DNA from: Blastocatellia bacterium
Lineage (GTDB): Bacteria > Acidobacteriota > Blastocatellia > RBC074
NCBI GenBank assembly: GCA_049317725.1
Contig: JBMOHS010000003.1
Location: 1 to 58,030, forward strand
Length of the DNA: 58,030 nucleotides
Direction: 5' to 3'
The notes under the pieces are model-generated. The model searched no databases. It was not told the origin of the DNA and worked only from the letters and a program-made list of their open reading frames with translations. Below are positions 11,205-40,249 of the stretch, one piece after another (positions within the stretch are counted from its first letter, which is position 1; each line of letters begins with the position of its first letter). A program made the translations under genes and the position numbers.

Positions 11205-11289
11205 CTGCGCTTCTCCACTCCCGATTTCGTTTGCCACTGAGGCGATGAGCGGTTCCCTCGCGCAACGGAGCGAACGCGCCATGGAGACT

Positions 11290-12027
11290 TCAGCTGGAGG
11301 AGGAGTCCACCAACCGCCGATCCGCCAGCAGGAGGACCCGGTCACAGGCGGCAGCCAAGTCTTCGTTATGGGTCACCAGGATGGCTGTCAATCGCTCCTC
11401 CCGGCGCAATTCGAGGAGCAGTTGTAAGATATCTGCCCCCGTCCGGTGATCAAGGTTCCCGGTCGGCTCGTCCGCGAGGAGGAGACACGGTGCCGCGACG
11501 AGCGCTCGCGCCAAGGCCACCCGCTGCTGCTCACCGCCCGAGAGGGCCCCCGGACGGTGAGCAGCCCGACCAGCCAACCCCACCCGGGCGATCAAGTCCC
11601 CAGCCCGCACACGTGCCTCCCGACGCCCGAGCCCGCCGATCAGCAGCGGCATCATCACGTTCTCAAGCGCGGTAAATTCAGGAAGGAGGTGGTGAAATTG
11701 AAACACGAACCCGATCTGCCGATTGCGGAACGTCGATAAGTCTAGCTCAGAGGTTTTTGTGATGTCAAACCCGTCGATCCGGACGCTTCCGGCGGTCGGT
11801 CGGTCGAGCCCGCCGAGCAGATGAAGGAGGGTCGACTTCCCCGCCCCGGAAGCCCCAACGATCGCAACCATCTCTCCAGACCGGATCGTCAGTGAGAGGT
11901 CCTCCAGAATAGGAATCTCCGTCTCAGCCAAGCGGTAGGCCTTGGTGAGCCCCTCGGCTTCGAGCAGAATCCGGTCCTCACCGCGAACCCGACTCCTGAC
12001 GGGGGATGGAGAAGGTGGCTGTTTCAT
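11290..12027 (-). CDS. lolD: LolD-like ABC transporter ATP-binding protein
   Basis: GASGAGKST, FRNRQIGFVFQFHHLLPEFTALENV, LSGGEQQRVA, ADEPTGNLD. Confidence 0.85.
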   Translation of the reverse strand: MKQPPSPSPVRSRVRGEDRILLEAEGLTKAYRLAETEIPILEDLSLTIRSGEMVAIVGASGAGKSTLLHLLGGLDRPTAGSVRIDGFDITKTSELDLSTFRNRQIGFVFQFHHLLPEFTALENVMMPLLIGGLGRREARVRAGDLIARVGLAGRAAHRPGALSGGEQQRVALARALVAAPCLLLADEPTGNLDHRTGADILQLLLELRREERLTAILVTHNEDLAAACDRVLLLADRRLVDSSSS

Positions 12028-13910
12028 GGTCGTGATGACCCTCCTGCTGGACCGGTCGCGACCGCCTCGGAAAGGGTCTTGCCCATTTCAGCGATGAGCG
12101 GAAAAGTACCGAAGGAAGAATGGGTCTCGACGAGGAGCCCATCGGTCAGCAGGGCGGTGCCGCGCACCGCCCAGGGCAAAGGAGTCCGCACGGCACCGGT
12201 GGAGGTCATCCCTTCCAACGGTTTTGTGCCGTTGACGAGCTGCTCGAGGATTGCTCGGAGCCGTTCGCGCTCCTCGTCTTCGCGGAAGTAGTGGCGCACC
12301 AGAAAGGGCGATGACGGGAGGGGATCGGCGAGGACAGGGGTCTCCCTCCAGGCTGGCGTCGCCAGGATCGACCCCGCCGAGTTCCGCCGATCGACCCAAC
12401 CACGCAGAACTGTCGGGCCCCCCCGCAGCAGCAGATCGTCAAGGAGGAGGGTCGCCGGATCTCCTGCCGCCTCGGGCAGGACGAGCCTCCCTCGCGCCAG
12501 CTCTTCAACCTCACGGACTCCCTTTTGTTGAGGCCCGTCTGGAGATGGTACGTTCAATGCGGAAGTCCCGCCGCGCGTCGACATCAACCAGACCCGCTCC
12601 TCCGGCGTTGCACCGAGCGTCACGGCGACCAGTCCATCCCCGATCGACGTCGCTGGTACAGGGGGAGATTGGCGATCAAGCAGCGTCCGCCGGACGCCGA
12701 GGACTGCCTGGTGGAGGAGGAAGCTCTCAGCCAACCCAAGGCGCGCCGAGAGCGCAGCCTCGACCGACTGGAGGGTGCCGAGCGGATCAGCGACCCGAAA
12801 GACGGTCCAGTCGATTGCGTCGGCGGGAACCAGCGCCAGTTGGCGGGCAGGCTCGTCGCCAAGTCGCAGCGACGGCGCAATCTGGTCGATCAGATCCTGG
12901 TTGAGCTGGACCAGCGTTTGTGTACGAGCCCGCCCCTCCAGATGGGCCTCGGCGAAGGCGATCCCGTGGAAGAGGCGGGGAGCGATGGCGGTCACTGCCT
13001 CTCCCAGCGCGCCAACCAGTCGACCCGTTTCCCCGACTGATTGCGTGCTCTCCATTGGGGAGAGCACGAGATGTGCTCCCGAACGGAGCAGCCGGGTGCC
13101 TCCATCGGCGGTGACATATCCATAAAGAGATGGAGAAGCAGAGGACGTCGTGACGATCCGTTGACGTGCCTGACGCCAGTAGAATTCTCCGGCCAGATTG
13201 GGAACTCGGCCGAGGTGGGCATCGAGGCAGGCGCGCAGGGCTGCGGACTGGTTGCTGACCATCCAGTACCCTTCTGCCCGGGCAATATAGAGGCCAATCT
13301 CTCCGGTCTCTGCGGTTTTTATGGATTCCCGTGGGTGATAACTGACGATCTCAACACCGCCGTACCGTTCGCGCCGTTCCTCGGTCGCCCCCAACATCTG
13401 CTCGACCAATGGTTGGAGCCGGGGCCCCCTCTCCACTCCCCACTGGCGTGGTGCCTCGGCGAGAAGAGTCCAATGTGGGCGAACCAACTCTCCGCGAAGC
13501 TCGAGCGCCATCAGGACCAGCCCCCATCGCCCCTCCAGCAGATCGGCGGTCTCCCCCGTTGCCTTCACCATCCAATCCACTACACCATTGGGCCACAGAC
13601 GATTCCACCAGGTCGACTCCCGGTTGTTACCTTTCGGCGAGACAAGCGGCCACGCCTTGAGTGACGTCAAGTGGCCAAGGAGCGCCGTCCCGGACTCGAC
13701 CTCGAGATAGCCCATCGCCGAACTGGGAACAGACTGGGCAAGGCTCTCCTGACGGGGGGGGCGCAGGGCCCACCAAGCAACCAGAGAGAGGGAGACCACT
13801 CCAGCCACGGCGACGCCGATCCGCCACCATCGTCTGCTTCCCAGCCGAGGGCGCTGCGGTTCGTGGCTCACCGGCGGACTTGTCTCCTGGTTCGACTCTT
13901 GACTCGTCAT
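12024..13910 (-). CDS. Hypothetical membrane-anchored (likely periplasmic) protein, about 630 aa
   Basis: Long ORF with a single N-terminal hydrophobic helix after RRWWR; ATG 13910 after AAGAGGGG; ATGA overlap with lolD. Confidence 0.75.
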   Translation of the reverse strand: MTSQESNQETSPPVSHEPQRPRLGSRRWWRIGVAVAGVVSLSLVAWWALRPPRQESLAQSVPSSAMGYLEVESGTALLGHLTSLKAWPLVSPKGNNRESTWWNRLWPNGVVDWMVKATGETADLLEGRWGLVLMALELRGELVRPHWTLLAEAPRQWGVERGPRLQPLVEQMLGATEERRERYGGVEIVSYHPRESIKTAETGEIGLYIARAEGYWMVSNQSAALRACLDAHLGRVPNLAGEFYWRQARQRIVTTSSASPSLYGYVTADGGTRLLRSGAHLVLSPMESTQSVGETGRLVGALGEAVTAIAPRLFHGIAFAEAHLEGRARTQTLVQLNQDLIDQIAPSLRLGDEPARQLALVPADAIDWTVFRVADPLGTLQSVEAALSARLGLAESFLLHQAVLGVRRTLLDRQSPPVPATSIGDGLVAVTLGATPEERVWLMSTRGGTSALNVPSPDGPQQKGVREVEELARGRLVLPEAAGDPATLLLDDLLLRGGPTVLRGWVDRRNSAGSILATPAWRETPVLADPLPSSPFLVRHYFREDEERERLRAILEQLVNGTKPLEGMTSTGAVRTPLPWAVRGTALLTDGLLVETHSSFGTFPLIAEMGKTLSEAVATGPAGGSSRP

Positions 13911-13938
13911 TGACCCCTCTTTCCAAATCAACGACACT

Positions 13939-13947
13939 ACTTTAGCA
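13939..13947 (-). promoter_or_regulatory. Possible extended -10 promoter (TGCTAAAGT) for the envelope block
   Basis: TGn-TAnnnT about 30 nt upstream of ATG 13910. Confidence 0.4.
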
Positions 13948-14065
13948 GCGAGCTACCAAGCTGAGAAGAGGGGAAGAATCGGACAAGAAGAGGAATGGCA
14001 GACACGCCGGGACAGAGGATCTACCTAAACGACCCTCGTAACGGAGGGTTTGACGGGAGGACCGC

Positions 14066-14596
14066 TTGATCGAGCTCTTTTTGATGCGCCACGGAATTGC
14101 GCTTGATCTGGGCATAAACGGAATCTTTCGGGATGAAGACCGCCCTTTGAGCGAAGTGGGGCGGAGAAAGATGCAAGAGGCGGCCCTGGGCGTGCGCTGG
14201 CTCGATCCCAGGCTCACCCTGATCTTGACCAGCCCCCTGCTCCGCTGTCAGGAGACGGCGGAGATCGTCGCGACCACCCTTGGGATGCAGGAGAGCGTCA
14301 AAACCCTTGACGCGCTCGCCCCGGGCCAGGGGTTTCTCCCACACGACGGCGCCGTTCCGCGCGTCATCGCAGATCTCGCCGCCTCTTCCTTCGAGCGCGC
14401 CCTGCTCGTTGGCCACCTCCCAGACCTTTCCGAGTTGGCCTCCTGGCTGCTAACTGGCCACCGCAGCTTGAACGTCGAGTTCAAGCGGGGTACCCTCTGT
14501 CTGATCGAAGTGACAAGTCTGCCGCCGCGTGGCCCCGGCCGCTTGCGTTGGGCCTTGTCACCGGGCCAACTGCGCCGGCTTGGCCAGCGCCATTGA
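14066..14596 (+). CDS. sixA: SixA-type phosphohistidine phosphatase
   Basis: LFLMRHG, DRPLS, TSPLLRCQETA, LLVGH; TTG start after GGAGG. Confidence 0.88.
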   Translation: MIELFLMRHGIALDLGINGIFRDEDRPLSEVGRRKMQEAALGVRWLDPRLTLILTSPLLRCQETAEIVATTLGMQESVKTLDALAPGQGFLPHDGAVPRVIADLAASSFERALLVGHLPDLSELASWLLTGHRSLNVEFKRGTLCLIEVTSLPPRGPGRLRWALSPGQLRRLGQRH

Positions 14597-21125: not shown

Positions 21126-24100
21126 CTAGAACTGCAACCGTGCCCCCAACTGCATCTGGAAGGGAGCTCCCGGATTGTTGTTGAGCAGGTAGTTGCCGTT
21201 GACGTCCTTGACACGGAGGAAGTTCCGGTTGGTCGGAGCGGCGAACCCGCAGTCCCGCGGAACCGGCGCCGCACAGTAGTTGGTCACCTGGGCCCCGGAG
21301 AGCTGGATGTTCTCCATGTTGAAGAGGTTGAAGAACTCGGCCGAGAAGGTCAAGCGACGCGAATCGCCGAGAGAGATCCCCTTCTGGAGGCGCATATCAA
21401 CCTCATAGGTCGCGAGGTTGCGGAACCCATTGCGGACGAAAGGCACACCGGGCGCCGAGTACGGCCGGTCCGGTCCACCGATATCCTCGTTGAAGTCCGA
21501 CCCGACCGAGGCATCGATCGGGAGCCCCGAGCGCAGCCGGATCGCACTCGATGCCTCGAAGCCGAGCGGAAGGAAGACCACCGTGTTGGCGACGAACTGA
21601 TGCCGACGATCGAGCCGCGAGAAGCTGAACTCGGGTGCGAGATTGTAGGCATTCTCGAAGGCAATTCCTCCCGCATCCCGCTCGTTGTCATCATCCGAGA
21701 GCGACCGCGAGAGGGTATAGAAGGCGTTGAACTGGGCGTACTTGCTGCGGTAGTTGGCTCGCAGAACCAAGGCTTGGTAGACGGAACGGCCCGTCGACTC
21801 CCGGACCTGCATGCTGCCGAGGCTGGGAATCGGGCGGTCGATCGCCGGCCGTCCCGCTGCTCCCCGCAACCCAAAGAACGGACGAAGGGCCGGATCTCCC
21901 GCCAAGATAGTCGGCGCCGGAAGATTGAGGTTCCGGTTGCGCTGCAGATAGATCGTATTGACCTGGCTGTAGTCGACACCGACATTGAGGCCACGTGCGA
22001 TCTCACGCTCGATGCCGCCACCCCACTGGTAGGACTTGGGGTTCTTGTACTCATCGGCCCAGGTGATCGGCTGCGCCCCGGTGAAGGGATCGAAGTTGGC
22101 CAATCCCAGGGCACCCGCGATCGACTGGACCTGCTGCGGAGTGAGGATCGGGAGTTTGTCGAGCGTGAAGTTGTTGAGGTCGATCCCGATCAACCGGAGC
22201 TGCTTGTAGATGGTATTGTTCGGATTGCCCGCGGGAACCCGGAAGGGAAGCTGCACCGACAGATCGCCCGGGATCTCCCGGAAATTGTTGAGTGGAGCGG
22301 CCAACAGGAGCATCGGAGTCCGCGCATAGTAGATGCCGCTGAAAGCACGGACGACCGTCTTGCCGCTGCCCGTCGGATCCCAAGCGAGGCCCAGACGGGG
22401 TCCCAACTGGTCGGTCACATCCGGAATCGTCGTCGGATCGACCGTGTGGCCGGAAGGGAACCGGAACCCGCGAACCTTATCGACCAGCGTCCGGTTGGTC
22501 GCCTCTGGGGCCGGGTTGTACTGCCCCTCCCAGCGCACCCCGTAGTTGATTGTCAGGTTGGGGCGGACACGCCACGAGTCCTGGGCATAGAGCGCGTACT
22601 CGTTAACTGTCAGATCGAGTCGACCATTCCCGAGCTGACGCAGGTAGGTCACGTCGGTCGAATCGAAGCGGTTGACCACTCCCGTCGTGATCGACGGCGT
22701 GTACGAGAGGATATCCATGATCGTGTTGGGGTTCGTTCCCTGGATGTTGAAGACCCCGAACTGGTTGAAGGCGAAGGTCTGGTCCGCAAAGACGTGGTTG
22801 ACCTCGGCCCCGAACTTGAAGCTGTGGTTCCCCTTGATCAGGGTCAGATTGTTGAAGATCTGCACGCGCCAATCGAACTGGGTCGTCGGGAGGAAGTTGA
22901 CCGTACCAAAGCGTCCAATCGCGTTGGTGACGTTGGGCGCCTCCGTATTGGCCAAGCGAGGACGAACCTCACGTGAATACTGCGCCCGCAACTCGTTGAC
23001 GAGGTTTGGCTTGAGGAAGCTGGTCAATTGTCCGACGATCGAGTAGTTGCGGTTCTGCTCCGTACCGTTATTGCTCAAGGCACTGACCGTGTTCGGGAAG
23101 AGCTGATTGCCCGTCGAGTTGGCGTTGAGCGCCCTGTTCCAGCTCTGGTTGTAGCGCAGATTGAGCCGGTTGGCCTCGCTGAAGTTGTAGTCGAAGCGGG
23201 CGAGATAGGCGATCGCGTCGTTCGTCTGATCGAAAGGGGTCTGCAAAGAGTTGTAGTAGTTGAAGGCCTCGCGCGTCACATCGGTCGCGGTGACATTCTG
23301 CAAGAGGTCGAAGAAGACGAAGCGGGGATTGGTGAACTTCTGCTGCTCGTAGGAGCCGAAGAAGAAGGCCTTGTCCTTCTTGATCGGTCCACCGATCGAG
23401 CCGCCGAACTGCTGCTGGGTCGGCGCGACGTTAACGGTCCGGCCCAAATTGCGCTGGAGCGCCTCATAGTAGGCATTCTTGCGGGAGAGGTCCTGCGGGC
23501 GAAGGAGGTAGAAAGCGGTCCCACGCGTCTCGTTGGTCCCCGACTTGGTCACCGCGGTCACCAAGCCTCCCGTCGACCGGCCAAACTCGGCGGAGTAACC
23601 CGACGCGACCACCTGGAACTCCTTGATCGACTCCTGCGGGATGGTGAAGGCGCTGTTCGAGCGCTCGCCACCGCGGACACCGCCAAAGAACGGCTGGTTG
23701 TAGTCCATCCCGTCGACGTTGATGTTCGAGTTGATGCCGCGCTGACCGGAGAGCGAGATCTGGCCACGCTGTGGGTCGACCTGGGCGGTCGGCGTCAGCG
23801 TGACGAAGTCCTGAAATCGGCGGCCATTGATCGGCAGGTTGGCGATCGAGGCCTCGTTGATCAGGGCATCCGGCTGCGAGACCGTCGTCTGGATGGCGTC
23901 GGCGGTCACCGTGATCGTCTCCGAGACAGCCCCGACTCCGAGGGTCAAGTTGATTTCAGTGACCTGCCCGACCTTGACCTGGACATTGGCCACTTCCCGT
24001 TTGGCGAACCCGCTCGCCTCCGTCGTCAGGAGGTAGGTCCCGGACGGAACCAGCACGAAACGGTAGATCCCGCTCTCGTTCGAGGTGGTGCTCGATTCAA

Positions 24101-24290
24101 GCCCGGTCTGGGTGCTGGCAATCCGCACCGCCGCTCCGGCAACCGCGGCTCCCGTCGAATCCCGTACCACACCCGAGATCTGGCCCGTACTTCCCTGGGC
24201 CTGCCCAAGCACTTGCCGGGCCCCAGCAATCATCAGCAGCGACAACGAGAGTGCCGCCACCGTCCCACGAATGATCGTTTGCTTCCCCAT
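21126..24290 (-). CDS. TonB-dependent receptor with N-terminal carboxypeptidase-regulatory-like domain
   Basis: Signal peptide, [28 protein letters not shown]...[11 protein letters not shown]...VTKSGTN plug, C-terminal MQLGARLQF. Confidence 0.92.
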
Positions 24291-24563
24291 AGAATTTTGC
24301 CTCACTTGAAAAATTGTTCTTCCTCCAGTTCCAGGCACGCCGGGTAGCGCGCGGGAAACCGGACCGATGCGTCGAAGCCCGCCTGCACTGTCTGTACAAA
24401 GGCAAGGAACTGTTGTCGATCGATCGGCTGGTAACGAGGCCCACTCCCCAGGTCCCCCTGGAAAGCTGACCAGACCAGCCGCTTCTCTCCCCTTCCCGAC
24501 ACGACTCTCCCCAATCAGGGTACGAGCGTGCGCTTTTGCCATTCCAGCAAGCTTCCTTGGCCT

Positions 24564-29471: not shown

Positions 29472-31283
29472 ATGATTGTCGCGATACGGATAGGCCTTGG
29501 CTTGGCGCTTGCGTTGATCCTTGGGTTTCTCATTTTTGGCGGCGAGCGCCTCGCCAGCCGGGTCGATGCTGCGGGGCCGTTGCCGATCAAACTGGAGCGC
29601 CATTTGGCTGTGCCCATGCGGGATGGAGTGACCCTCTACGGAGATCTCTACCGGCCCCGGGCGGACGGGAAGTACCCAGTCCTGATCGTGCGAACGCCTT
29701 ATGGAGTGCAGCGCGACGGCGTCCACGAGACCATGATGAAGTTCGCGCAGAATGGGTACGCGACCTTCATTCAGGATACCCGCGGACGTTATGAGAGTGA
29801 AGGAAAATGGGAGCCGTTCCGGACCGAGGCTGAGGACGGGTATGACACGATCGAGTGGGCGGCAAAGCAGCCTTGGTCGAACGGCAAGGTCGCGACGCAG
29901 GGTGGATCTTACCTGGGCCACGTCCAGTGGCGAGCCGGAAGCCTGACCCCACCCAGCCTCGTCGCGATGTTTCCAGCAGTCGCTTCGACCAATATCTACG
30001 CCAACTGGATCACGCTTGGCGGGGCCTACCGGTTATCGTTCAACTATGGTTGGGGAGTGGTGCGCATGCCACACCGGATCATGCTGCCACAATACTGGCA
30101 CAGTGAGCCCTACTCGCCAACCGAGTTGAAGTACGAGACGATCCTCAATCACCTGCCGTTGATCGACGGCGACCTCGAGAGCGCTGGTGGAGTGGTTCAA
30201 CACTATCGGGACTGGCTCTCCCACCCAGACTACGACCAATACTGGCGCTCGATCAGCGACGAGGAGCGGTTTGCCAACGTCAAAGTGCCCGTCTTCACCA
30301 GTGGGGGATGGTTCGACATCTTCGTGCAAGGCACGATCAACGGCTATGTCGGGATGAAGAAGTACGGGGGCACGGAGAAGGCGCGGCGTGAATCTCGCAT
30401 GATCATCGGCGCGTGGGGCCATGGACCGAGTCAGAAGTTTGGCGATGTCGATTTTGGGCCGATCAACAACCGGAACCAGTTCGAGACCGAACTCCGTTGG
30501 TTCGATCACCACGTCAAAGGGATGCGCACCGATCTCGCGAATCTGCCGCCGGTCGAGATCTTCTACATGGGCGTCAACCAGTGGCAACACGAACAGGACT
30601 GGCCAATCCCCGGAGCGAAGGAGACCCCCTTCTACCTCTCGAGCGGGGGTGCCGCCAACACCCCGGCCGGCAATGGCCGTCTCAGCCTCGCCCAACCCAC
30701 CGGAGCACCGAGCGATCAGTATCGGTACGATCCGAATGATCCGGTTCCGACGCTGGGAGGAAACAACTGCTGCGGCACGCCGACGGTGGCGGGGCCGAAG
30801 GACCAACGGCCCCTGGCTGGGCGCAAGGACATCCTCGTCTACACCAGCGAGCCCCTCAAGGAGTCGCTGGCGATTGCCGGTCCGGTAAAGATGAAGCTCT
30901 TTGCCGCGACCGATGGGCCAGACACGGACTGGGTCGTCAAGCTGATCGATGTTCGCCCGGATGGCTTCGCCATCAATGTCTGCGAGGGGATTCTGCGGGC
31001 GCGTTACCGCCAGGGAACCGCGAAGCCCGAGTTGCTGACCCCGAACAAGGCCTACGAGTTTGAGGTCGATCTCGTCGGGACAGCCAATGTCTTTCTGCCC
31101 GGACACCGGATTCGGGTCGATGTGACGAGCAGCCATTTCCCGCAATTCGACCGCAACCCGAATACTGGCGAGCCGTTTGCACGCTCGGCAAAGGTTCGGG
31201 TCGCGGCCCAAACGATCTTCCATTCGACCGATCGACCCTCGCACATCGTGCTTCCAGTCGTGCCGGTGCCGAAGAAGAAGTGA
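29472..31283 (+). CDS. Exported CocE/NonD family serine hydrolase (peptidase S15-like)
   Basis: VPMRDGVTL, RTPY, GGSYLG nucleophile, GGWFD, GAWGHG, SSHFPQFDRNPNTG; N-terminal hydrophobic signal/anchor. Confidence 0.93.
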   Translation: MIVAIRIGLGLALALILGFLIFGGERLASRVDAAGPLPIKLERHLAVPMRDGVTLYGDLYRPRADGKYPVLIVRTPYGVQRDGVHETMMKFAQNGYATFIQDTRGRYESEGKWEPFRTEAEDGYDTIEWAAKQPWSNGKVATQGGSYLGHVQWRAGSLTPPSLVAMFPAVASTNIYANWITLGGAYRLSFNYGWGVVRMPHRIMLPQYWHSEPYSPTELKYETILNHLPLIDGDLESAGGVVQHYRDWLSHPDYDQYWRSISDEERFANVKVPVFTSGGWFDIFVQGTINGYVGMKKYGGTEKARRESRMIIGAWGHGPSQKFGDVDFGPINNRNQFETELRWFDHHVKGMRTDLANLPPVEIFYMGVNQWQHEQDWPIPGAKETPFYLSSGGAANTPAGNGRLSLAQPTGAPSDQYRYDPNDPVPTLGGNNCCGTPTVAGPKDQRPLAGRKDILVYTSEPLKESLAIAGPVKMKLFAATDGPDTDWVVKLIDVRPDGFAINVCEGILRARYRQGTAKPELLTPNKAYEFEVDLVGTANVFLPGHRIRVDVTSSHFPQFDRNPNTGEPFARSAKVRVAAQTIFHSTDRPSHIVLPVVPVPKKK

Positions 31284-31519
31284 CCCCGGTTTTTGCACCA
31301 CTGGCCCGTCTCTCCAAGATTGCCAAGGAGGGAACGGGCCGGTGGTGAAAATGCCCGTTTCCTCTTCCATCACGCGGCGATTCAGGCACTCTGTCAGCCA
31401 TTCCAGCTCAATCTGTCTTGACTCGACAAGTGCGAAAACTCGTGGAAATGGGAAGGATGCGTGTGATCGCGTGTAGACAAAAGGAGACCGTATTCATGAT
31501 GACGATGACGGAGGCATCT

Positions 31520-34500
31520 ATGATGAACGAGCCAACGAAATGGAGCACACTTGCAGTGGGCCTGCTTCTGACGCTGATGCTGGGACTGGCGCCGGGAGTG
31601 AGGGCCCAGACCACATCAACGACAATTCTCGGCGTGGTGGCCGATGCTACCGGCGCAGTGATCGGTGGCGCGAAGGTTACCGCCACCAATGTCAGCACGC
31701 GGGTCAGCCGCGAGGTTGTCTCCGGATCGACCGGTGACTTTACGTTTCCCTTGGTCGATGTCGGAATCTACGACATCACGGTCGATGCGCAGGGCTTCAA
31801 GACCGAGATTCGCCGCAACGTCATCGTCAACATCAATGAGAAGGTTCGCGTCGACTTTTCCCTGCAGGTCGGGGCGGCGAGCGAGCGGGTCGAGGTGACG
31901 GCGGAAGGAGCGACGCTGCGCACCGACGATGCGACGCTCGGCCAGACGATCGAGCAGCGGCGCGTCGAGGAGTTGCCGCTCAACAACCGTAACATCGGCG
32001 CGTTGGCCATTCTGCAACCCGGGGTTCAGTACGGCCCACGCAGCGGAACGGACGGCCAGGGCTTTGGACAGCGCCAGGGTTCGCACGGCGTGCCGATTCC
32101 GGGCATCGGCCTCTCGTTTGTCGCCAATGGGCAACGGGAGACCAACCAGCACGCAACGCTCGATGGGGTCGTCGCGACCGAGGCGCGCGTCAACACCGTC
32201 CCCTTCAGCCCGTCCGTCGAGGCGATTGCCGAGTTCAAGGTTCTCTCTGGCAGCTACTCGGCTGAGTATGGATTCAACGCCGGCGCCCAGACGATCATCG
32301 TCACCAGGTCGGGCGGGAACGAGTTCCACGGCTCCGCCTTCGAGTTCCTGCGCAACGATGTCTTCGATGCGGAGAACTATTTCCAGAACTACTTCAACGC
32401 ACCAGGGGCAACGCGGTCCAAGAAGAACAGCCTGCGACAGAACAATTTTGGCGGCGTGGTCACCGGGCCCTTCGCCATTCCCAAGATCTACGACGGAACC
32501 AACAAGACCTTCTTCATGTTCAACTACGAGGGGCGGAGACGTCGTGACGGCCGGTTTGCGCAGACGGCCAATCACCCACCAATGGCCTTCCGAAATGGCG
32601 ACTTCAGCTCGCTGCTCGGACTGCCAACCCCCCTGCGGATTGTCGATCCGTTGACCGGGGACCCCTTCCCGAACAACATCATTCCGGCCAACCGGATCAG
32701 CAACGCGGCGAAGGAGTTGATGAAGTTCTGGCCGGAGCCGCAGCGCGTCAATCCCAATCCACTCGTCGGGATCAACTACACCGGCTTCGAGCGGCGATCG
32801 CTGGATGACACCCAAGTCTTCGGACGCATTGATCACAACATTGGCGAGAACGACAAGATCTTTGCCCGTTACGCCTTCAACGATGTCACCTACCGTGTCG
32901 TCCCCGGGGACAACCCGAACTTCACCTACTTTGTCGCCGGTCGCAATCAGAATGTCGGAGCGGCGTGGATCCACATCTTCAATCCGAATCTGATCAACGA
33001 GGTTCGGTACGGCTACAACCGATCCGTCAACAATACGCTCAACAACCGGGCCAACACGACCTTTGATGTCGAGACGCTGGGATTGACCGGTTTCCGTGTC
33101 GTCAATGACAGCAACCGCAAGTTCACTCCCCGTGAGACAGGGGTGCCGACGATCTCCGTCAACGCCTTCTCGACGCTGGCCGAGCAGGATGGTGGCAACG
33201 GCTTCGACTTCAACAACCTGCACCAGTTCAATGACAACGTGACGTGGGTTCACGGCAACCACACCACCAAGTTCGGGTTTGACTACCGCTGGGTGGCGCT
33301 CTTTCGCGGGGCGGCCAACGTGCCCCGTGGCGGGTTGAACTTCAACGGGGACATCGCCAACAACGGCTTTGCCGCTTTCCTGTTGGGGTTCCCGAGCGTG
33401 ACGACGACCCCTGAGGGGTTGCCCTTGACGGAGACGCGCCAGCAGCGCTTCGCCGCCTACGCCATGGATGACTGGAAGATCTCGCGCAAGCTGACCCTCA
33501 ACTATGGTCTGCGCTGGGAGTACAACACCCCGGCGGTCGATATCAAGGGGCTCTGGCGCTCGTTGAGCTTCGACACACGGACCAATGGTCTGCCGACGGT
33601 CATCCCGAACATCGGAACCGAATTCCAGTTCTATCCGCCGCAGCGGGACATCTTCATGCCCCGGATCGGCATCGCCTACCGTCCAACCGACAACTGGGTG
33701 ATTCGGTCCGGTTTTGGCATCTACTACAACGTCCACCAGTTGAACAACTACACCATTCTCAACCTCAATCCGCCGAAGTCCGGGACGAGCAACTTTGCCA
33801 ACACCGCGACGGCGGGCCGGATCACCAATTCGCCAACCCAGCCGGTGCTGACCTTTGCCGCCCCGTTCGGGGTAGTCAATCCGACCAGTCCGACGGGGAT
33901 CAACGCGCTCAGTCCGGACAATCCGCAGCCGAGCGTGGCCCAGTGGAGCTTGGACGTGCAGCGACGGCTGCCCTTCGACATCGTGCTCTCGGTGGGCTAC
34001 GTCGGCAACAAGGGGACGCACATCGACCAGACGGTCGAGCTCAATGCGCCCGCACCGTCGATTCTGCCCAATCCCAACTCGCGGCGTCCGATCCCGTTCT
34101 TCGCCGATGGCGTCAATGGCCCAACCCGCGCGCTCAACCGGTTGCGCTGGCTGACCTCGGATGGAAATTCGTGGTACCACGCGTTGCAGGTCAATGCACA
34201 GAAGCGGTTCAGCAATGGGCTGCAGATGAATGTCGCCTACACCTGGGGACGGGCCATGGGAGAGGGCTATGGTCGGAACGAGGGGGGAGGCGCCATCCCG
34301 AACTCCTACCAGAACCCATTCGACCGGGCCGCGGAGAAGACCCGCTATGGCTTCGATTTCCAGCACAGCGCCGTGATCAGCTTCCTCTATGAGCTGCCAA
34401 CGCCCGGTGCCCTCAACAAGGGGTTTGGCAAGCACATCTTCGGTGGCTGGCAGATGAACGGAATCGTCGTGCTGCGCTCGGGGCTGCCGTTCTCGGTGAC

Positions 34501-34996
34501 CCAGACCAACACGCTCAACACCATTGAGGGTCACGTCCGCCCCGACTTGGTTCGCAATCCCAAGCTGGCCAACCCGACGGTCAACAAGTGGTTCGATCCG
34601 GATGCCTTCCGGGTGGTCACCTGCCAGCAGCCCGGTGCGGCGACCGATCCTGGGCGTGCACTCAACCAGTACCTCGCCGGCTTCTGCAAGTTCGGAAGTG
34701 CTGGACAGGGAATTCTCGAGGGTCCCGGATTCAAGAACGTCGACTACTCGTTGATCAAGAACATTCAGATCAAGGAGGATCTGCGGCTCCAGTTCCGGGC
34801 AGAGATCTTCAACATCTTCAACACGCCGCAGTTTGGCACGCCTAACGCGAGCCTCAACGCGGCGACAGCCTTCCTGCCGACGACGGCGGGTGGCGCCTTC
34901 CCGACCCAGGTCGCGCCCTCGCGCGGACCAGGGTCGATCGCCAACATCATCGCCCCGATGCGACAGATGCAGTTCGGGCTGAAGCTGATCTTCTAG
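31520..34996 (+). CDS. TonB-dependent receptor with N-terminal carboxypeptidase-regulatory-like domain
   Basis: Signal peptide (VRA-Q), GVVADATGAVIGGAKV, ELPLNNRN, YSAEYG, VTRSGGNEFHGSAFEFLRN, RQMQFGLKLIF end; ATG after GGAGG. Confidence 0.93.
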   Translation: MMNEPTKWSTLAVGLLLTLMLGLAPGVRAQTTSTTILGVVADATGAVIGGAKVTATNVSTRVSREVVSGSTGDFTFPLVDVGIYDITVDAQGFKTEIRRNVIVNINEKVRVDFSLQVGAASERVEVTAEGATLRTDDATLGQTIEQRRVEELPLNNRNIGALAILQPGVQYGPRSGTDGQGFGQRQGSHGVPIPGIGLSFVANGQRETNQHATLDGVVATEARVNTVPFSPSVEAIAEFKVLSGSYSAEYGFNAGAQTIIVTRSGGNEFHGSAFEFLRNDVFDAENYFQNYFNAPGATRSKKNSLRQNNFGGVVTGPFAIPKIYDGTNKTFFMFNYEGRRRRDGRFAQTANHPPMAFRNGDFSSLLGLPTPLRIVDPLTGDPFPNNIIPANRISNAAKELMKFWPEPQRVNPNPLVGINYTGFERRSLDDTQVFGRIDHNIGENDKIFARYAFNDVTYRVVPGDNPNFTYFVAGRNQNVGAAWIHIFNPNLINEVRYGYNRSVNNTLNNRANTTFDVETLGLTGFRVVNDSNRKFTPRETGVPTISVNAFSTLAEQDGGNGFDFNNLHQFNDNVTWVHGNHTTKFGFDYRWVALFRGAANVPRGGLNFNGDIANNGFAAFLLGFPSVTTTPEGLPLTETRQQRFAAYAMDDWKISRKLTLNYGLRWEYNTPAVDIKGLWRSLSFDTRTNGLPTVIPNIGTEFQFYPPQRDIFMPRIGIAYRPTDNWVIRSGFGIYYNVHQLNNYTILNLNPPKSGTSNFANTATAGRITNSPTQPVLTFAAPFGVVNPTSPTGINALSPDNPQPSVAQWSLDVQRRLPFDIVLSVGYVGNKGTHIDQTVELNAPAPSILPNPNSRRPIPFFADGVNGPTRALNRLRWLTSDGNSWYHALQVNAQKRFSNGLQMNVAYTWGRAMGEGYGRNEGGGAIPNSYQNPFDRAAEKTRYGFDFQHSAVISFLYELPTPGALNKGFGKHIFGGWQMNGIVVLRSGLPFSVTQTNTLNTIEGHVRPDLVRNPKLANPTVNKWFDPDAFRVVTCQQPGAATDPGRALNQYLAGFCKFGSAGQGILEGPGFKNVDYSLIKNIQIKEDLRLQFRAEIFNIFNTPQFGTPNASLNAATAFLPTTAGGAFPTQVAPSRGPGSIANIIAPMRQMQFGLKLIF

Positions 34997-35023
34997 TCAG
35001 GTCAGCAGGCAATTCAACCAACG

Positions 35024-35070
35024 CGGGGGATCTGCGGAGCATCGTCTTCCCGGGTCCCCCGTCTCTTATT
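35024..35070 (+). terminator. Stem-loop / possible partial terminator after the receptor
   Basis: CGGGGGATCTG / CGGGTCCCCCG (11 bp with G-U) followed by TCTCTTATT. Confidence 0.55.
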
Positions 35071-35121
35071 GTGGTCCGAGACACGAATAGTCCAATCCAT
35101 TTATTGCAAGAGGATCAAGCC

Positions 35122-36342
35122 ATGTCCAACCGTCGCAATTTTCTGCAGGCGATGTCGAGCCTTCCCTTCATCGGGTCGATCTTCAGCAGCGAGGCGCTGG
35201 CCGTCAAGAAGGCCGACCCGACGCGCGACTACTTCAGGGAGCTCGGCGTGCGTCCGTTCATCAACGCCGCCGGCACCTACACGACACTCACGGCATCGCT
35301 GATGCACCCCGAAGTGATGGCGGCGATCAACTATGCGTCCAAGACCTTTGTCCCGCTCAACGACCTGCACGACGCGGTCGGCAAGCGGATTGCCGAGCTG
35401 GTGGGCTGTGAAGCGGCGATGGTGACATCTGGCGCGGCCGCGGCGCTGACCGCCGGAACCGCCGGTGTCGTGGCTGGCAAAAATCCGGAGTGGATCAAGC
35501 GGATTCCTGACCTGACCGGCACGGGGATGAAGAACGAGGTGATTGTCCAGAAGGCGCATCGCAACGGCTATGATCACGCCGTCCGCAACTGCGGCATCAA
35601 GCTGATCGAGGTCGAGTCGGCCGAAGAGCTGGAGCGGGCCATCAACGAGAAGACCGCGATGATGTTCTTCTTCAACGATGCCGATCCGAAGGGTGAGGTC
35701 AAGCTCGAACAGTTTGTCGAGATTGCCAAGAAGCGCCAGATCCCGACCCTCAACGATGCGGCGGCCGATGTTCCGCCAACCGGCAACATCTCGAAGTACA
35801 CCCGGATGGGGTTCGATCTGGTCGCCTTCTCGGGTGGGAAGGGGATCCGCGGGCCGCAGAGTGCTGGCCTGCTCCTCGGGCGCAAGGATCTGATCGAGGC
35901 CGCCCGCCTCAACTACTCGCCGAACAGCGACAGTATCGGGCGTGGAATGAAGGTCAACAAAGAAGAGCTGCTCGGGATGATGGTCGCGGTCGAGGTCTAC
36001 CTCAAGCGTGACGAGGCAGCCGAGTGGAAGGAGTGGGAGCGGCGTGCGAGGGTGGTGATCGACGCCGCGATGGCGGCAAACAAGGCGGTCGTTGGGGAGG
36101 TCTACGTGCCGCCGATCGCCAACCACGTCCCGACCGTGCGACTCAAGTGGGAGAAGTCAGCCCTCGATCTGAACGCGGATGAGGTGCGGAGGCGAATGAA
36201 GGAGGGCTCCCCCTCGATCGAGATCACACCGGGCAATACCCCTCCAGCAGAGGCGACGCAATCGCTCTCCATCGGCATCTGGCAACTTCAGCCGGGTGAG
36301 GTCGATATCGTCGCGAAGCGGTTGAAGGCCTCACTCGCCTGA
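35122..36342 (+). CDS. SelA/DgaE-like fold-type-I PLP enzyme with a Tat signal peptide
   Basis: INAAGTYT, VTSGAAAAL, DAAA, FSGGK(PLP)GIRGPQ, IGRGMKV; N-terminus MSNRRNFL...EALA. Confidence 0.85.
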   Translation: MSNRRNFLQAMSSLPFIGSIFSSEALAVKKADPTRDYFRELGVRPFINAAGTYTTLTASLMHPEVMAAINYASKTFVPLNDLHDAVGKRIAELVGCEAAMVTSGAAAALTAGTAGVVAGKNPEWIKRIPDLTGTGMKNEVIVQKAHRNGYDHAVRNCGIKLIEVESAEELERAINEKTAMMFFFNDADPKGEVKLEQFVEIAKKRQIPTLNDAAADVPPTGNISKYTRMGFDLVAFSGGKGIRGPQSAGLLLGRKDLIEAARLNYSPNSDSIGRGMKVNKEELLGMMVAVEVYLKRDEAAEWKEWERRARVVIDAAMAANKAVVGEVYVPPIANHVPTVRLKWEKSALDLNADEVRRRMKEGSPSIEITPGNTPPAEATQSLSIGIWQLQPGEVDIVAKRLKASLA

Positions 36343-36358
36343 CACTGCGCTTTCCGCA

Positions 36359-36386
36359 AGGGGGGCCGACACAAGGTCGCCCCCCT
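36359..36386. repeat. REP-like GC palindrome
   Basis: AGGGGGGCCGAC-ACAAG-GTCGCCCCCCT, 16 nt after the stop codon. Confidence 0.55.
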
Positions 36387-36499
36387 CCAACTTGAACCCG
36401 AGGCCGATCGCGCCACGGCCGGTGACACCCAACGGCCAAAGACGTCGCGCTGCCCATCTGTCACCGTCTACCCAATCTCCTGTGGAGGGGGAACTTCCG

Positions 36500-38128
<1,629 letters not shown>

Positions 38129-38175
38129 CGCGCCCTGGTTGTTTCAGAATTCACGATCGAGGATGGAGTATTTTT

Positions 38176-39081
38176 ATGTCGAAGAAACTTGCGTCATTGC
38201 TGACCTTCAGTCTGTTGCTGGCAGCAGGAGTGGGCCTGTCTATCGGTTGGCAGGTAGAGTCGCAGATTCAGGTACCGCCAGGACTGCGCGCCGAGCGCAA
38301 TACCTGGACACCGCTGATGGATGTTCTGAAGAAAGATCGGCCGCGGGTCACCGACGAGCAGCTCGCCCGCATCGCCAAGTATCCGATCGAGGCCCTCTGG
38401 AATGGTGTGCAGAATCAGGGCTACACGCGGAACTTCGCCAACCACTTTCGTCTTACCCAACCGGGTACAAAACTGGTGGGACGAGCCCTGACGATGCGCT
38501 ACCTTCCCCTGCGGCCAGACATCGATGCGGCCACCAAGCAGTTGGCCAAGGAGGGCGACTGGGACTACCAGTACAACGTTCGGGCAGGAGAGGACGCCCA
38601 GCCGGGCGATGTGATCGTTGTCGAGCTCGGCGGGGCGGTCGATCGTGCGACCTTCCTCGGTGATGTGACCGGGATCGGAATGAGGCAGCGCGGGGTGCGT
38701 GGGGTCGTGGTCGACGGTGGAATTCGTGATCTGAACGAGTTCCTGGTGATGAAAGACTTCCCGATCTACTACGTCAACGCGCACGCCTCAGCCATGGCCG
38801 ACGAGGTTGGCGTCGAGTGGAACGCGCCGATCCGGATCGGTCACGTCTCAGTGCTGCCGGGGGATGTCGTGGTCGGGGATGAGGAGGGAGTACTCTTCTT
38901 CCCCCCCCAGATCACCGAAGAGGTCCTCAAATCAGCAGCCTTGACGGTCAACACCGAGAACTTCAAACGGGAGATGATGCGCTCCGGCAAGTATCGCTCG
39001 CGTGACATCTACCCGAAACTCAGCCCCGAGCTGGAAAAACGCTACCAGGAGTGGCTCAAGACCAATCCGATTGACAACTGA
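38176..39081 (+). CDS. RraA / HMG-CHA aldolase-like protein with an N-terminal signal peptide
   Basis: LVGRALT, PGDVIVV, GVVVDGGIRD, VLPGDVVVGDEEGV; N-terminus MSKK plus a hydrophobic stretch. Confidence 0.85.
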   Translation: MSKKLASLLTFSLLLAAGVGLSIGWQVESQIQVPPGLRAERNTWTPLMDVLKKDRPRVTDEQLARIAKYPIEALWNGVQNQGYTRNFANHFRLTQPGTKLVGRALTMRYLPLRPDIDAATKQLAKEGDWDYQYNVRAGEDAQPGDVIVVELGGAVDRATFLGDVTGIGMRQRGVRGVVVDGGIRDLNEFLVMKDFPIYYVNAHASAMADEVGVEWNAPIRIGHVSVLPGDVVVGDEEGVLFFPPQITEEVLKSAALTVNTENFKREMMRSGKYRSRDIYPKLSPELEKRYQEWLKTNPIDN

Positions 39082-39484
39082 GCGGATTCGCATCGATCAA
39101 GTCTCCCGTTGCCCCCGCTCCCAGCCGGGGAAGTGGGCCCTCTACCAGCCGCAGCAGGTCCGATTTTTCGCGGCCCATGGGGGGCTGCGCTCTTGAAACA
39201 ACCGCAAGTGCACTATACACTCAAGCTTTGCCAAGGAAGCTCCTCGTTGTGTGTCCAGTTACTCTCTTCCCCTACTTCCAGCATGACTTGGAGATCTTTT
39301 GCTCTTTCGTGGAGAAGTTCGGTCCAGGGAGCACCTCTCACCTGACCGGGAAAGTCAAGGAGGGGCTCCAAGAAAGCGTCTGGAGAGGAGCGCGTGGCCC
39401 AGACTGATGATCGCCTCTCGACAAGGGGCAGCCAAGAGAGATCGCGCATCGCCGAGCATCAGGAGCATCAGGGAGAATCGATGT

Positions 39485-40249
39485 ATGAACAAACCGCCAA
39501 CGAGTAACTCCGAGCCTCCTGCCAAGGCAACCGCCACGGGAAAAGAGAAGTTACTGGTCGTCGAGGACGATCCCGCCATCCAGCGAATGATCTCTGACTA
39601 CTTTCGTCGCCAAGTCGGGTACGAGGTCCTGACTGCGGGCGATGGGGAGATCGGGGTGAGGATGGCACTGACCGATCAGCCAACGGTGATGATCCTCGAC
39701 CTGATGCTGCCGCGATTGGACGGATTGACCGTCTGCCGACAGGTCCGTGAGCGGTACCCGACACTTCCGATCATCATGTTGACCGCAAAGGACGATGTGG
39801 TCGACAAGGTGCTGGGCCTCGAGATGGGTGCCGATGACTATATGACCAAACCCTTCAGTCTTCGCGAACTCGAAGCGCGACTGAAGAGTGTCTTGCGTCG
39901 GACACGCGCCCGCAGCAGCGATCCGGAGGAGACCGAGCAGGCTCCGATCGTGCGTGGTTCCCTGCGGATCGATCCGGCTCGACGCGAAGTCACCATTGGG
40001 GAGCGGATTGTCGACCTCACCCCCAAGGAGTTCGAGCTGCTCTCCCTCTTTGCGGCCCACCCAGGACGTGTCTATTCCCGCAAATACCTCCTCGAGAACA
40101 TCTGGGATTATACCTACAGCGGGTATGACCGGACGATCGACTCACACATCAATCGACTGCGCGCCAAGATCGAGGAGAATCCGGACGATCCCAAACTCGT
40201 GCTGACGGTCTGGGGAGTGGGCTACAAGTTCAACGACGAATCGGATTGA
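39485..40249 (+). CDS. OmpR/PhoB family response regulator
   Basis: LVVEDD, ILDLMLP, GADDYMTKPF, LTPKEFELL, RTIDSHINRLRAKIE, TVWGVGYKF. Confidence 0.95.
   Translation: MNKPPTSNSEPPAKATATGKEKLLVVEDDPAIQRMISDYFRRQVGYEVLTAGDGEIGVRMALTDQPTVMILDLMLPRLDGLTVCRQVRERYPTLPIIMLTAKDDVVDKVLGLEMGADDYMTKPFSLRELEARLKSVLRRTRARSSDPEETEQAPIVRGSLRIDPARREVTIGERIVDLTPKEFELLSLFAAHPGRVYSRKYLLENIWDYTYSGYDRTIDSHINRLRAKIEENPDDPKLVLTVWGVGYKFNDESD

Follow-up and report, generated by a model that had tools for sequence, protein, structure and literature searches.

Two juxtaposed modules of export-signal-bearing DgaE-like, CocE-type and RraA-like enzymes in a Blastocatellia genome

Deamination by pyridoxal-phosphate (PLP) lyases, clean-up of enamines by RidA, dehydration of sugar acids and cleavage of 2-oxo acids are classically steps of the bacterial cytoplasm. 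In the dga pathway, the step catalysed by the lyase DgaE (also DGL) is followed by an aldolase step, that of DgaF, which gives pyruvate, as excerpts of its description have it (PMC9529869). In the ong cluster of Pseudoalteromonas prydzensis, which acts on 2-(acetylamino)-2-deoxy-D-gluconate (GlcNAc1A) from oxidised chitin, the excerpted account lists a TonB receptor, the deacylase OngB, the PLP deaminase OngC, which gives 2-keto-3-deoxygluconate (KDG), the RidA protein OngD and an inner-membrane transporter (PMC9537276). Both pathways share the logic of the locus described here, a run of five successive plus-strand open reading frames (ORFs) at positions 29472-39081 of a 58,030-nucleotide stretch of DNA from a Blastocatellia bacterium (contig JBMOHS010000003.1, assembly GCA_049317725.1; the whole stretch is called the window), which encode a CocE/NonD hydrolase, a TonB-dependent receptor (TBDR), a SelA/DgaE-like PLP enzyme, an LctP-family permease and an RraA-like protein. 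As far as the two accounts go, however, both pathways deacylate and deaminate in the cytoplasm, and they use other enzyme families for several of the steps. The five genes fall into two juxtaposed modules of predicted exported enzymes, and we put at about even the chance that these act in sequence in the periplasm.

The likeness to the ong cluster extends to a TonB receptor, a deacylating enzyme, a PLP deaminase, RidA and an inner-membrane transporter, but deacylation and deamination are described there as cytoplasmic, whereas the window's enzymes have export signals and come from different families: OngC is of fold type III and OngB a D-aminoacylase, while the PLP enzyme of the window is of fold type I. 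KDG is phosphorylated by KdgK in the described pathway, and the window has an RraA-like enzyme instead. An ong-type GlcNAc1A pathway was rejected for the window, from which the OngB, OngC, RidA and KdgK families are absent, KdgK not having been searched for genome-wide. Unlike DgaE, the PLP enzyme has a signal of the twin-arginine translocation (Tat) type, no phosphotransferase system or DgaF gene lies nearby, and its family is partnered in many loci by an exported RidA.

The HMG/CHA aldolases, which act on 4-hydroxy-4-methyl-2-oxoglutarate and 4-carboxy-4-hydroxy-2-oxoadipate (LigK/ProA, structure 3NOJ), convert 4-hydroxy-2-oxo acids to pyruvate. Structurally the RraA-like model matches them best, and it shares with them an Arg-Asp pair that is invariant in its family; unlike them, the RraA-like protein, at about 23% identity, is predicted to be exported, has N- and C-terminal extensions and stands in no aromatic-degradation context. 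Another point of comparison is FlDet of Flavobacterium sp. UMI-01, an RraA-like 2-keto-3-deoxy-glucarate dehydratase/decarboxylase of about 27 kDa that, in the excerpted description, has 26% identity to RraAS2 and 20% to HMG/CHA aldolase (PMC8563752). RraAS2 is also the best sequence match of the window protein in the Protein Data Bank (PDB); FlDet is known here by its description, and as far as that reaches its location and partners differ from those of the window protein.

In the literature searched we found no description of exported DgaE-like lyases with exported RidA or of such a periplasmic route, nor of exported RraA-like enzymes with Tat dehydratases, the nearest match for RidA, Tat and PLP concerning nicotine catabolism. 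PvdN and PtaA of pseudomonads are not catabolic lyases: they tailor pyoverdine and belong to PLP subfamilies other than that of the window. Both are PLP enzymes exported by Tat and a precedent for the export of folded PLP enzymes to the periplasm; PLP is listed among the cofactors of Tat substrates in the excerpted part of a 2026 Tat review (PMC13673990). The families and the pathway logic are known; within the literature searched, the predicted compartment and the combination are new.

Export signals and the PLP enzyme family

The sequence-only reading from which this analysis set out had seen export-like signals on all three enzymes, and these are borne out by their conservation among the homologues of each family, the calls being heuristic and based on motifs, hydropathy and that conservation. 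The PLP enzyme (N-terminus MSNRRNFLQ...) opens with MSNRRNFLQAMSSLPFIGSIF and has the pattern of a Tat substrate, a twin-arginine (RR) motif followed by a hydrophobic stretch (SNRRNFLQAMSSLPFIGSIF), from which its export is predicted. Of 120 homologues, 115 have an RR motif no later than residue 40, and five are truncated or variant at the N-terminus; the motif recurs in a paralogue on contig C63 of the same genome and in more distant paralogues, and TatC is encoded in the genome (230.8 bits). The N-terminus of the RraA-like protein is positively charged, hydrophobic and variable in sequence, and a conserved ...VPxGLRAxRxT... block starts the mature part. Kyte-Doolittle hydropathy is at least 2.0 in 94 of 120 homologues and 1.95-1.98 in 15 more, and the called N-termini of the remaining 11 are shorter or less hydrophobic. 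Residues 1-40 are of low confidence in the AlphaFold model of this protein, which is therefore uninformative on the signal region. A hydrophobic N-terminal segment is present in all 11 CocE orthologues examined. These patterns support export signals as conserved features of the three enzyme families, and the enzymes are predicted to be periplasmic.

The PLP enzyme matches PF03841 (SelA) over part of the profile only. Its best NCBIfam model is the DgaE model TIGR01437, at 185.6 bits against a cut-off of 385.3, and a second DgaE model, NF047797, gives 162 bits against 600; DgaE/DGL is also its nearest solved and characterised relative (E 3e-33). The SelA-like fold type I, the PLP lysine (FSGGK aligned to YSGAK of DgaE; K240, invariant in alignment A1) and an equivalent of the carboxylate-binding Arg-226 (GRK aligned to GRK; R254, invariant in the same alignment) are retained. 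His-162 and His-163 of DgaE fall in a gap, the family consensus being without His at this place, and the phosphate-cluster residue Arg-301 is aligned to Thr, positions 332 and 346 lying beyond the aligned stretch. According to excerpts of its description, the loop with these two His residues is strictly conserved in DGL sequences and protonates the enamine at C-3, and its authors suggest that it may prevent the release of a toxic or reactive intermediate (PMC9529869). The PLP enzyme lacks the loop, and so fits a separate RidA partner. The likeness to DgaE on which the sequence-only reading drew does not amount to orthology: a true DgaE orthologue was rejected on the failed curated cut-offs and the absent His-162/163 loop. 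Selenocysteine synthase (SelA) was rejected as well (TIGR00474, 47.2 bits against 267.9).

The gene neighbourhoods of the family point to its chemistry. A scan of one genome per species gave 591 relatives, and the best 80 loci, which span Acidobacteriota, Bacteroidota (Cytophagales) and Planctomycetota, were analysed. Like the 80 loci of the RraA-like family described below, these are the best-scoring relatives and not a random sample; many are short, their genes were called with a crude longest-ORF script, and neighbour families were sought by tblastn with a handful of queries, by which divergent members were missed. Within 5 kb of the PLP gene we counted RidA in 33 loci, an amidohydrolase in 21, DUF362 and TBDR in 14 each, CocE in 10, ApbE in 8, the RraA-like gene in 3 and LctP in 1. 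When only the 47 loci with 3 kb or more to each side are taken, the figures are 21 (RidA), 15 (amidohydrolase), 12 (DUF362), 9 (TBDR), 5 (CocE), 5 (ApbE), 1 (RraA-like) and 0 (LctP). Judged by eye, nearly all the short RidA copies have RR-bearing, Tat-type N-termini and the amidohydrolases Sec-type ones. The amidohydrolase partner is assigned to NF006689 with 437 bits (cut-off 371), a family named ‘amidohydrolase/deacetylase family metallohydrolase’. It and CocE (at least 50% identity) exclude each other near the PLP gene, since none of 9 CocE loci and none of 21 amidohydrolase loci has the other; one hydrolase thus seems to stand in for the other, an interchange that is suggestive and not statistically strong. 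In the taxonomic family of the window genome, probably Blastocatellia and here called f1, both complete PLP-positive genomes without a CocE orthologue (G013, G021) have the version with amidohydrolase and RidA.

These ties of the PLP gene to a Tat-signal RidA and a hydrolase support, in outline, the deacylation followed by beta-elimination and deamination that had been proposed from the sequence. We infer that the PLP enzyme is a periplasmic beta-eliminating ammonia-lyase, because an enamine-releasing enzyme fits the frequent exported RidA; its substrate would be an alpha-amino acid that is not phosphorylated and has a hydroxyl or comparable leaving group in beta position, supplied from a TBDR-imported compound by the adjacent hydrolase (CocE/NonD here, NF006689 elsewhere).

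Other members of these neighbourhoods deserve mention. The neighbourhood of the PLP gene repeatedly includes a Tat-signal DUF362 protein and a signal-bearing ApbE of the flavin transferase family (L006 11224-12378, plus strand, and 13524-14498, minus strand; L080 11633-12751), which hints at an exported flavinylated redox partner. The paralogue on C63 (G000; L010 6368-7624, minus strand) is a second Tat-signal SelA/DgaE-like gene, 44-47% identical, with the N-terminus MNRREMIKYL..., divergent to a TBDR paralogue (about 8932-12216) and with several signal-bearing genes nearby. Tandem PLP paralogues occur in L003 (8779-11334), L019 (8630-11185), L054, L058 and L061. In L003 and L019 the upstream copy (59% identity) is without a recognisable Tat motif and its neighbour has one; the former might be co-exported as part of a hetero-oligomer, or its start might be mis-called.

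Two gene modules and their co-occurrence

The five consecutive plus-strand genes of the sequence-only reading are present, with families assigned by ORF listing and Pfam and NCBIfam profile searches (Table 1), but they are not one unit. In f1 a CocE-TBDR-PLP group recurs in either order (L001, L004, L005, L008, L022, L024, L025), and the LctP and RraA-like genes are adjacent in all eight same-genus genomes that have both, as well as in G021 and G013, and near each other in G014; in seven other genera they are on different contigs or absent. Direct adjacency of PLP and LctP is found only in G000 and G006 among the eight same-genus genomes with both genes. An opposite-strand block of CysN/CysD/CysH-like, TauE and OmpA-family genes lies between them in G001 and G005, and an opposite-strand OmpA gene alone in G007; in G003 and G004 an OmpA gene upstream of LctP is consistent with this arrangement. 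Because opposite-strand genes intervene in genomes of the same genus, co-transcription of PLP and LctP is not ancestral, and the region consists of two separable modules, CocE-TBDR-PLP and LctP-RraA, and not of one conserved operon.

The second module has its own preferred partners. Among 80 metagenome loci of the RraA-like family, an enolase-superfamily gene of the mandelate racemase/muconate lactonizing enzyme (MR/MLE) group adjoins the RraA-like gene in 34, and in 21 of the 37 whose length is 5 kb or more; TBDR is found in 7 of the 80 and PLP in 4. An RR motif is present in the N-terminal region of 30 of 31 complete MR/MLE copies, and representatives score best with ManD and galactonate-dehydratase models, under the equivalog cut-offs. 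In f1 the RraA-like gene also lies directly 3' of a paralogous TBDR gene (L120, L122, L123, L125), followed in L122 by a Tat-signal PLP enzyme resembling D-Ser dehydratase and BhcC. Both kinds of partner produce 2-oxo or 2-keto-3-deoxy acids, which supports the placing of an RraA-like step after the lyase: the protein would convert such an acid, by retro-aldol cleavage or by dehydration or decarboxylation. Further Tat-signal proteins near RraA-like genes (L121 7139-8509, L118 18102-19574) look, from the N-terminal pattern alone, like Gfo/Idh/MocA-type oxidoreductases.

The two modules meet in several other places. In G021 (L006) genes for an alcohol dehydrogenase, LctP, the RraA-like protein, amidohydrolase and ApbE follow each other on one strand, beside genes for Tat-signal DUF362, RidA and PLP proteins, and all of these proteins except the dehydrogenase and LctP have signals. 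L027 has the order RraA-amidohydrolase-ApbE-DUF362-RidA-RidA-PLP-TBDR, and L125 the order TBDR-RraA-LctP-CocE-like. In other phyla a divergent RraA-like gene lies within 10 kb of the PLP gene in L054, L065, L087, L134, L179, L185 and L196.

PLP, RraA-like and this type of LctP co-occur across genomes, although the five genes are no conserved unit, so that the co-occurrence expected on the sequence-only reading stood for these three families and not for the whole cluster. In an even sample of the phylum (251 genomes; RraA-like at E<=1e-30, PLP at E<=1e-40), 15 have the RraA-like gene, 31 the PLP gene and 11 both, against 1.9 expected (Fisher p = 2e-8). Of the 25 f1 genomes 17 have both and 6 neither; G012 has PLP only and G017 RraA only, with a PLP fragment (p = 3e-4 by genome, 5e-3 by genus). 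These p-values exaggerate the strength of the association, because the genomes are related and not independent; G010 (L215, in the family count) and G087 (L117, in the phylum count), both flagged unpublished, are included. The window type of LctP (at least 68% identity) is present in 16 of 18 RraA-positive f1 genomes and, among the 7 RraA-negative ones, in G008 only. In this same-genus genome the LctP gene (L129, C43 1545-3170) stands directly between purC and the response regulator gene; the locus is kept while CocE, TBDR, PLP and RraA are jointly absent from it, and no PLP or RraA match was found anywhere in the 93%-complete assembly. The LctP match of G008 is an open frame of 834 amino acids in the search output.

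LctP itself, part of the cluster in the sequence-only reading, is not a constant partner, and its link is lineage-specific. With TIGR00795 it scores 477 bits (subfamily cut-off 341), and its cargo is not fixed by family because it misses both equivalog cut-offs, for L-lactate (463 against 918) and glycolate permease (451 against 1121). It is distinct from a 47%-identical paralogue on contig C161. It adjoins the RraA-like gene in none of the 80 metagenome loci, and orthologues are unlinked in five f1 genomes (G023, G018, G009, G010, G022), at loci that have neither a PLP nor an RraA partner, nor any close CocE; in G022, LctP lies 3 kb from an MR/MLE gene, and there is one CocE-like gene of 31% identity.

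Table 1. Features of the locus, with positions in the window
Feature	Position	Strand	Remarks
CocE/NonD (S15) serine hydrolase	29472..31283	+	Hydrophobic signal or anchor predicted at residues ~7-33; TIGR00976, cocaine esterase match
TonB-type outer-membrane receptor	31418..34996 (longest ORF)	+	CarboxypepD_reg, divergent plug, OMP_b-brl_4 barrel
Fold-type-I PLP enzyme, SelA/DgaE-like, predicted Tat signal	35119..36342 (longest ORF from 35071)	+	406 aa; RRNFLQ, FSGGK
LctP-family monocarboxylate permease	36500..38128 (longest ORF from 36392)	+	TIGR00795
RraA-like protein (‘long’ RraA/HMG-aldolase fold), predicted Sec signal	38176..39081	+	PF03737; 301 aa
GC-rich hairpin, long, 3' of CocE gene	31288..31355	+	-51.5 kcal/mol, z -3.63; 0/200 shuffles equally stable
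GC-rich hairpin with U-rich tail, 3' of TBDR gene	35023..35062	+	z -2.11; 8/200 shuffles equally stable
GC-rich hairpin in the 157-nt PLP-LctP spacer	36359..36386	+	-26.8 kcal/mol, z -2.45; module boundary

The true starts of the PLP, LctP and TBDR genes are probably downstream of those of the longest ORFs. The PLP gene probably starts at the ATG at 35119, because the form in database cluster P0006 has 406 amino acids; the likely start of LctP is the ATG at 36500, and that of the TBDR gene is probably at 31496-31523, with a signal ending ...GVRA|Q. The receptor is recognised by its barrel (OMP_b-brl_4, 733 bits; PF00593, TonB_dep_Rec_b-barrel, 34 against a cut-off of 27); a putative Plug domain, under its cut-off (19 bits against 23.9), lies at the expected position. 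The cluster is flanked by housekeeping genes, upstream by purC and GroEL genes on the minus strand and downstream by genes for an OmpR-type response regulator and penicillin-binding protein 1A. Beyond GroEL lies a second large TonB-type receptor (window 21126-24542, minus strand; CarboxypepD_reg and OMP_b-brl_4, 1138 amino acids), whose orientation is unrelated to that of the cluster.

Hairpins were detected by folding and compared with 200 shuffles. Those 3' of the CocE, TBDR and PLP genes may be terminators, attenuators or mRNA-stabilising elements, and folding found no hairpin at the LctP-RraA junction. A consensus scan gave no excess of promoter-like sites (2, against 2.3 expected from shuffles) or of terminator-like sites (4 against 9.1). 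The gene order is real and no artefact of assembly, because the junctions from TBDR through PLP and LctP to RraA are also present on contigs obtained independently in other sequencing runs, one contig of 5.3 kb spanning 34341-39600. One contig of another run (X1) matches LctP from about 36512 on and differs upstream, which suggests a coexisting strain with another gene before LctP. The runs containing this DNA are mostly freshwater metagenomes, and Blastocatellia and further members of the Acidobacteriota supply the nearest named homologues and loci.

The proposed route and its alternatives

The observations are the gene content, the conservation of export signals and of neighbourhoods, and the co-occurrence across genomes; the periplasmic location, the reaction types, the order of steps, the substrate and the LctP cargo given below are proposed from them. 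The receptor would import an ester- or amide-linked compound, from which the CocE hydrolase would free an alpha-amino acid with a beta leaving group, perhaps glucosaminate or another amino-aldonic acid, or else a beta-hydroxy amino acid. The DgaE-like enzyme would remove the beta substituent and ammonia to give a 2-oxo acid, which for an amino-sugar acid substrate would be a 2-keto-3-deoxy acid. The RraA-like protein would then act on a 4-hydroxy-2-oxo acid, by retro-aldol cleavage to pyruvate and an aldehyde or by decarboxylation or dehydration, and LctP would import the resulting monocarboxylate. The sequence-only reading had a periplasmic catabolic chain of this kind; its chemistry is supported in outline by the family context, whereas its LctP link proved to be lineage-specific and the five genes not to be one conserved unit.

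How the RraA-like protein acts is the point at which the closest alternative departs: the layout would be the same, but this protein would be a dehydratase/decarboxylase of the FlDet type or an oxaloacetate-type decarboxylase, and LctP would import a 2-oxo-acid semialdehyde, or pyruvate from decarboxylation. We regard this as possible, if doubtful. The protein belongs to PF03737 (97 bits), and among NCBIfam models NF006093/PRK08245 fits it best, with 137.5 bits and thus under the cut-off of 208, ahead of the HMG/CHA aldolase models NF006731 (83 against 179) and TIGR02798 (77.5 against 304.5); on the last two cut-offs a LigK-type HMG/CHA aldolase was rejected. The RNase E regulator RraA was rejected as well (TIGR01935, 37.2 against 123.8; NF006875, 39.6 against 136), from which the protein differs in its signal peptide and its length of 301 amino acids, against about 160. 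By sequence its top match among PDB entries is RraAS2 (5X15), not an aldolase, and the MR/MLE partners of its family weakly resemble aldarate dehydratases. On the other side, the nearest structure that Foldseek finds for its AlphaFold model (predicted local distance difference test score 81) is the HMG/CHA aldolase 3NOJ (E 3e-16), followed by PSPTO_3204, RraAS2 and YER010C in that order. The motif DGGIRD is aligned to DAGVRD of 3NOJ, and the equivalents of Arg123-Asp124, which we take to be the catalytic/metal pair, are invariant in alignment A2 (R184, D185). Being nearer to PRK08245 than to the HMG/CHA aldolases, the protein is as possibly a FlDet-like decarboxylase/dehydratase as a retro-aldolase. 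The parallel with FlDet, which according to excerpts of its description is RraA-like and acts on 2-keto-3-deoxy-glucarate (PMC8563752), is drawn from that description. The aldolase likeness originally read from the sequence is supported by the fold and the invariant Arg-Asp pair and not by the curated models.

The route proposed above supposes that the two modules act together, and a rather doubtful alternative is that they are independent and became neighbours through gene-order drift, CocE-TBDR-PLP handling one imported substrate, the RraA-like protein serving a different pathway in which its usual companion is an exported sugar-acid dehydratase, and LctP being a general monocarboxylate permease. 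Several observations weigh against joint action, and most of them fit this alternative. Opposite-strand genes part PLP from LctP-RraA in G001, G005 and G007; stable hairpins follow the CocE, TBDR and PLP genes, the last of them at the PLP/LctP boundary; LctP never adjoins the RraA-like gene in the 80 loci, is unlinked in five f1 genomes and is retained in G008 without RraA or PLP. The RraA-like gene is within 5 kb in 3 of 80 PLP loci and the PLP gene in 4 of 80 RraA loci, while the main partner of the RraA-like family is an MR/MLE dehydratase (34 of 80). With queries from other loci, no Tat MR/MLE gene was found in the window's own genome, nor an exported RidA, an NF006689 amidohydrolase or DUF362; this search gave two short RidA-like matches without the N-terminal part and one Tat-signal gene resembling D-Ser dehydratase. 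In G015 (C24:445151-452542, L009; genome 82% complete) both PLP and CocE have internal stops (TAG/TGA), which may be module decay or assembly error, and RraA is intact. The phyletic co-occurrence could also come from shared lifestyle or ancestry. Independence is harder to reconcile with the size of that co-occurrence (11 against 1.9 expected in 251 genomes; in f1 17 with both, 6 with neither and 2 discordant), with the RraA orthologues beside the usual PLP partners in L006 and L027, with the joint absence of PLP and RraA at the G008 locus, and with the RraA-like genes near PLP in the seven loci of different phyla listed above. Moreover, the RraA-like gene is the only one found in its genome and has no MR/MLE partner there.

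Less probable still is the scavenging of peptides or amino acids, in which the S15 hydrolase would trim oligopeptides, the PLP enzyme would deaminate amino acids of the Ser/Thr/Cys type (L or D) to pyruvate or 2-oxobutyrate for import by LctP, and no sugar acids would be involved; we hold this unlikely. The hydrolase has Peptidase_S15 and PepX_C domains; it scores 492 bits with the CocE/NonD model TIGR00976 (cut-off 66.3), matches cocaine esterase (E 5e-119) and contains GGSYLG, which is presumably the nucleophile elbow motif. After cocaine esterase its nearest solved relatives are alpha-amino acid ester hydrolases, which would suit such scavenging, as would the RidA partners, typical of Ser/Thr dehydratase chemistry. 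The analogous deaminase OngC also accepts D-Ser and D-Thr in the excerpted account (PMC9537276). Against this, among characterised proteins the PLP enzyme is closest to the amino-sugar-acid lyase DgaE, the usual hydrolase partner is the NF006689 amidohydrolase/deacetylase, which is no peptidase family, and the partners of the RraA-like protein elsewhere are sugar-acid dehydratases.

That the N-terminal segments are no working export signals, but mis-called starts or cytoplasm-facing anchors on cytoplasmic enzymes, is very improbable: it could appeal to the 11 of 120 RraA homologues with shorter or less hydrophobic called N-termini, but the RR motif is kept in PLP homologues and paralogues, the signal-like regions vary yet stay hydrophobic with conserved mature sequence directly after them, each of the three enzymes has positive charges ahead of its hydrophobic core, ribosome-binding sites lie upstream of the long starts, and the partners RidA, MR/MLE, DUF362, amidohydrolase and ApbE bear signals too.

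Wider scope and meaning

The locus joins two predicted exported modules in a reduced form that is particular to its lineage, and the periplasmic route proposed for it may be one form of something broader. Tentatively, we suggest an ATP-free periplasmic catabolic route in Acidobacteriota, Bacteroidota and Planctomycetota, which on present evidence we think possible but doubtful as a whole. TonB-imported amino-sugar or sugar acids would be deacylated by CocE/NonD or an NF006689 amidohydrolase. The next step would be either deamination, by a DgaE-like PLP lyase and a RidA that are both exported by Tat, or dehydration, by an enolase-superfamily enzyme likewise exported by Tat. An RraA-like enzyme exported by Sec would split or decarboxylate the product, and only small monocarboxylates would enter the cytoplasm, here via LctP; in this picture the window would hold a minimal form, with the lyase branch linked to the RraA-like step.

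If this is true, a part of central-type carbon and nitrogen catabolism would take place outside the cytoplasm, at hundreds of loci in several soil and freshwater phyla. It would revise models of uptake, ammonia release and cross-feeding in Acidobacteriota and similarly abundant, poorly cultured bacteria, and would give testable functions to large subfamilies that are now annotated as ‘selenocysteine synthase’, ‘RraA’ or ‘amidohydrolase’.

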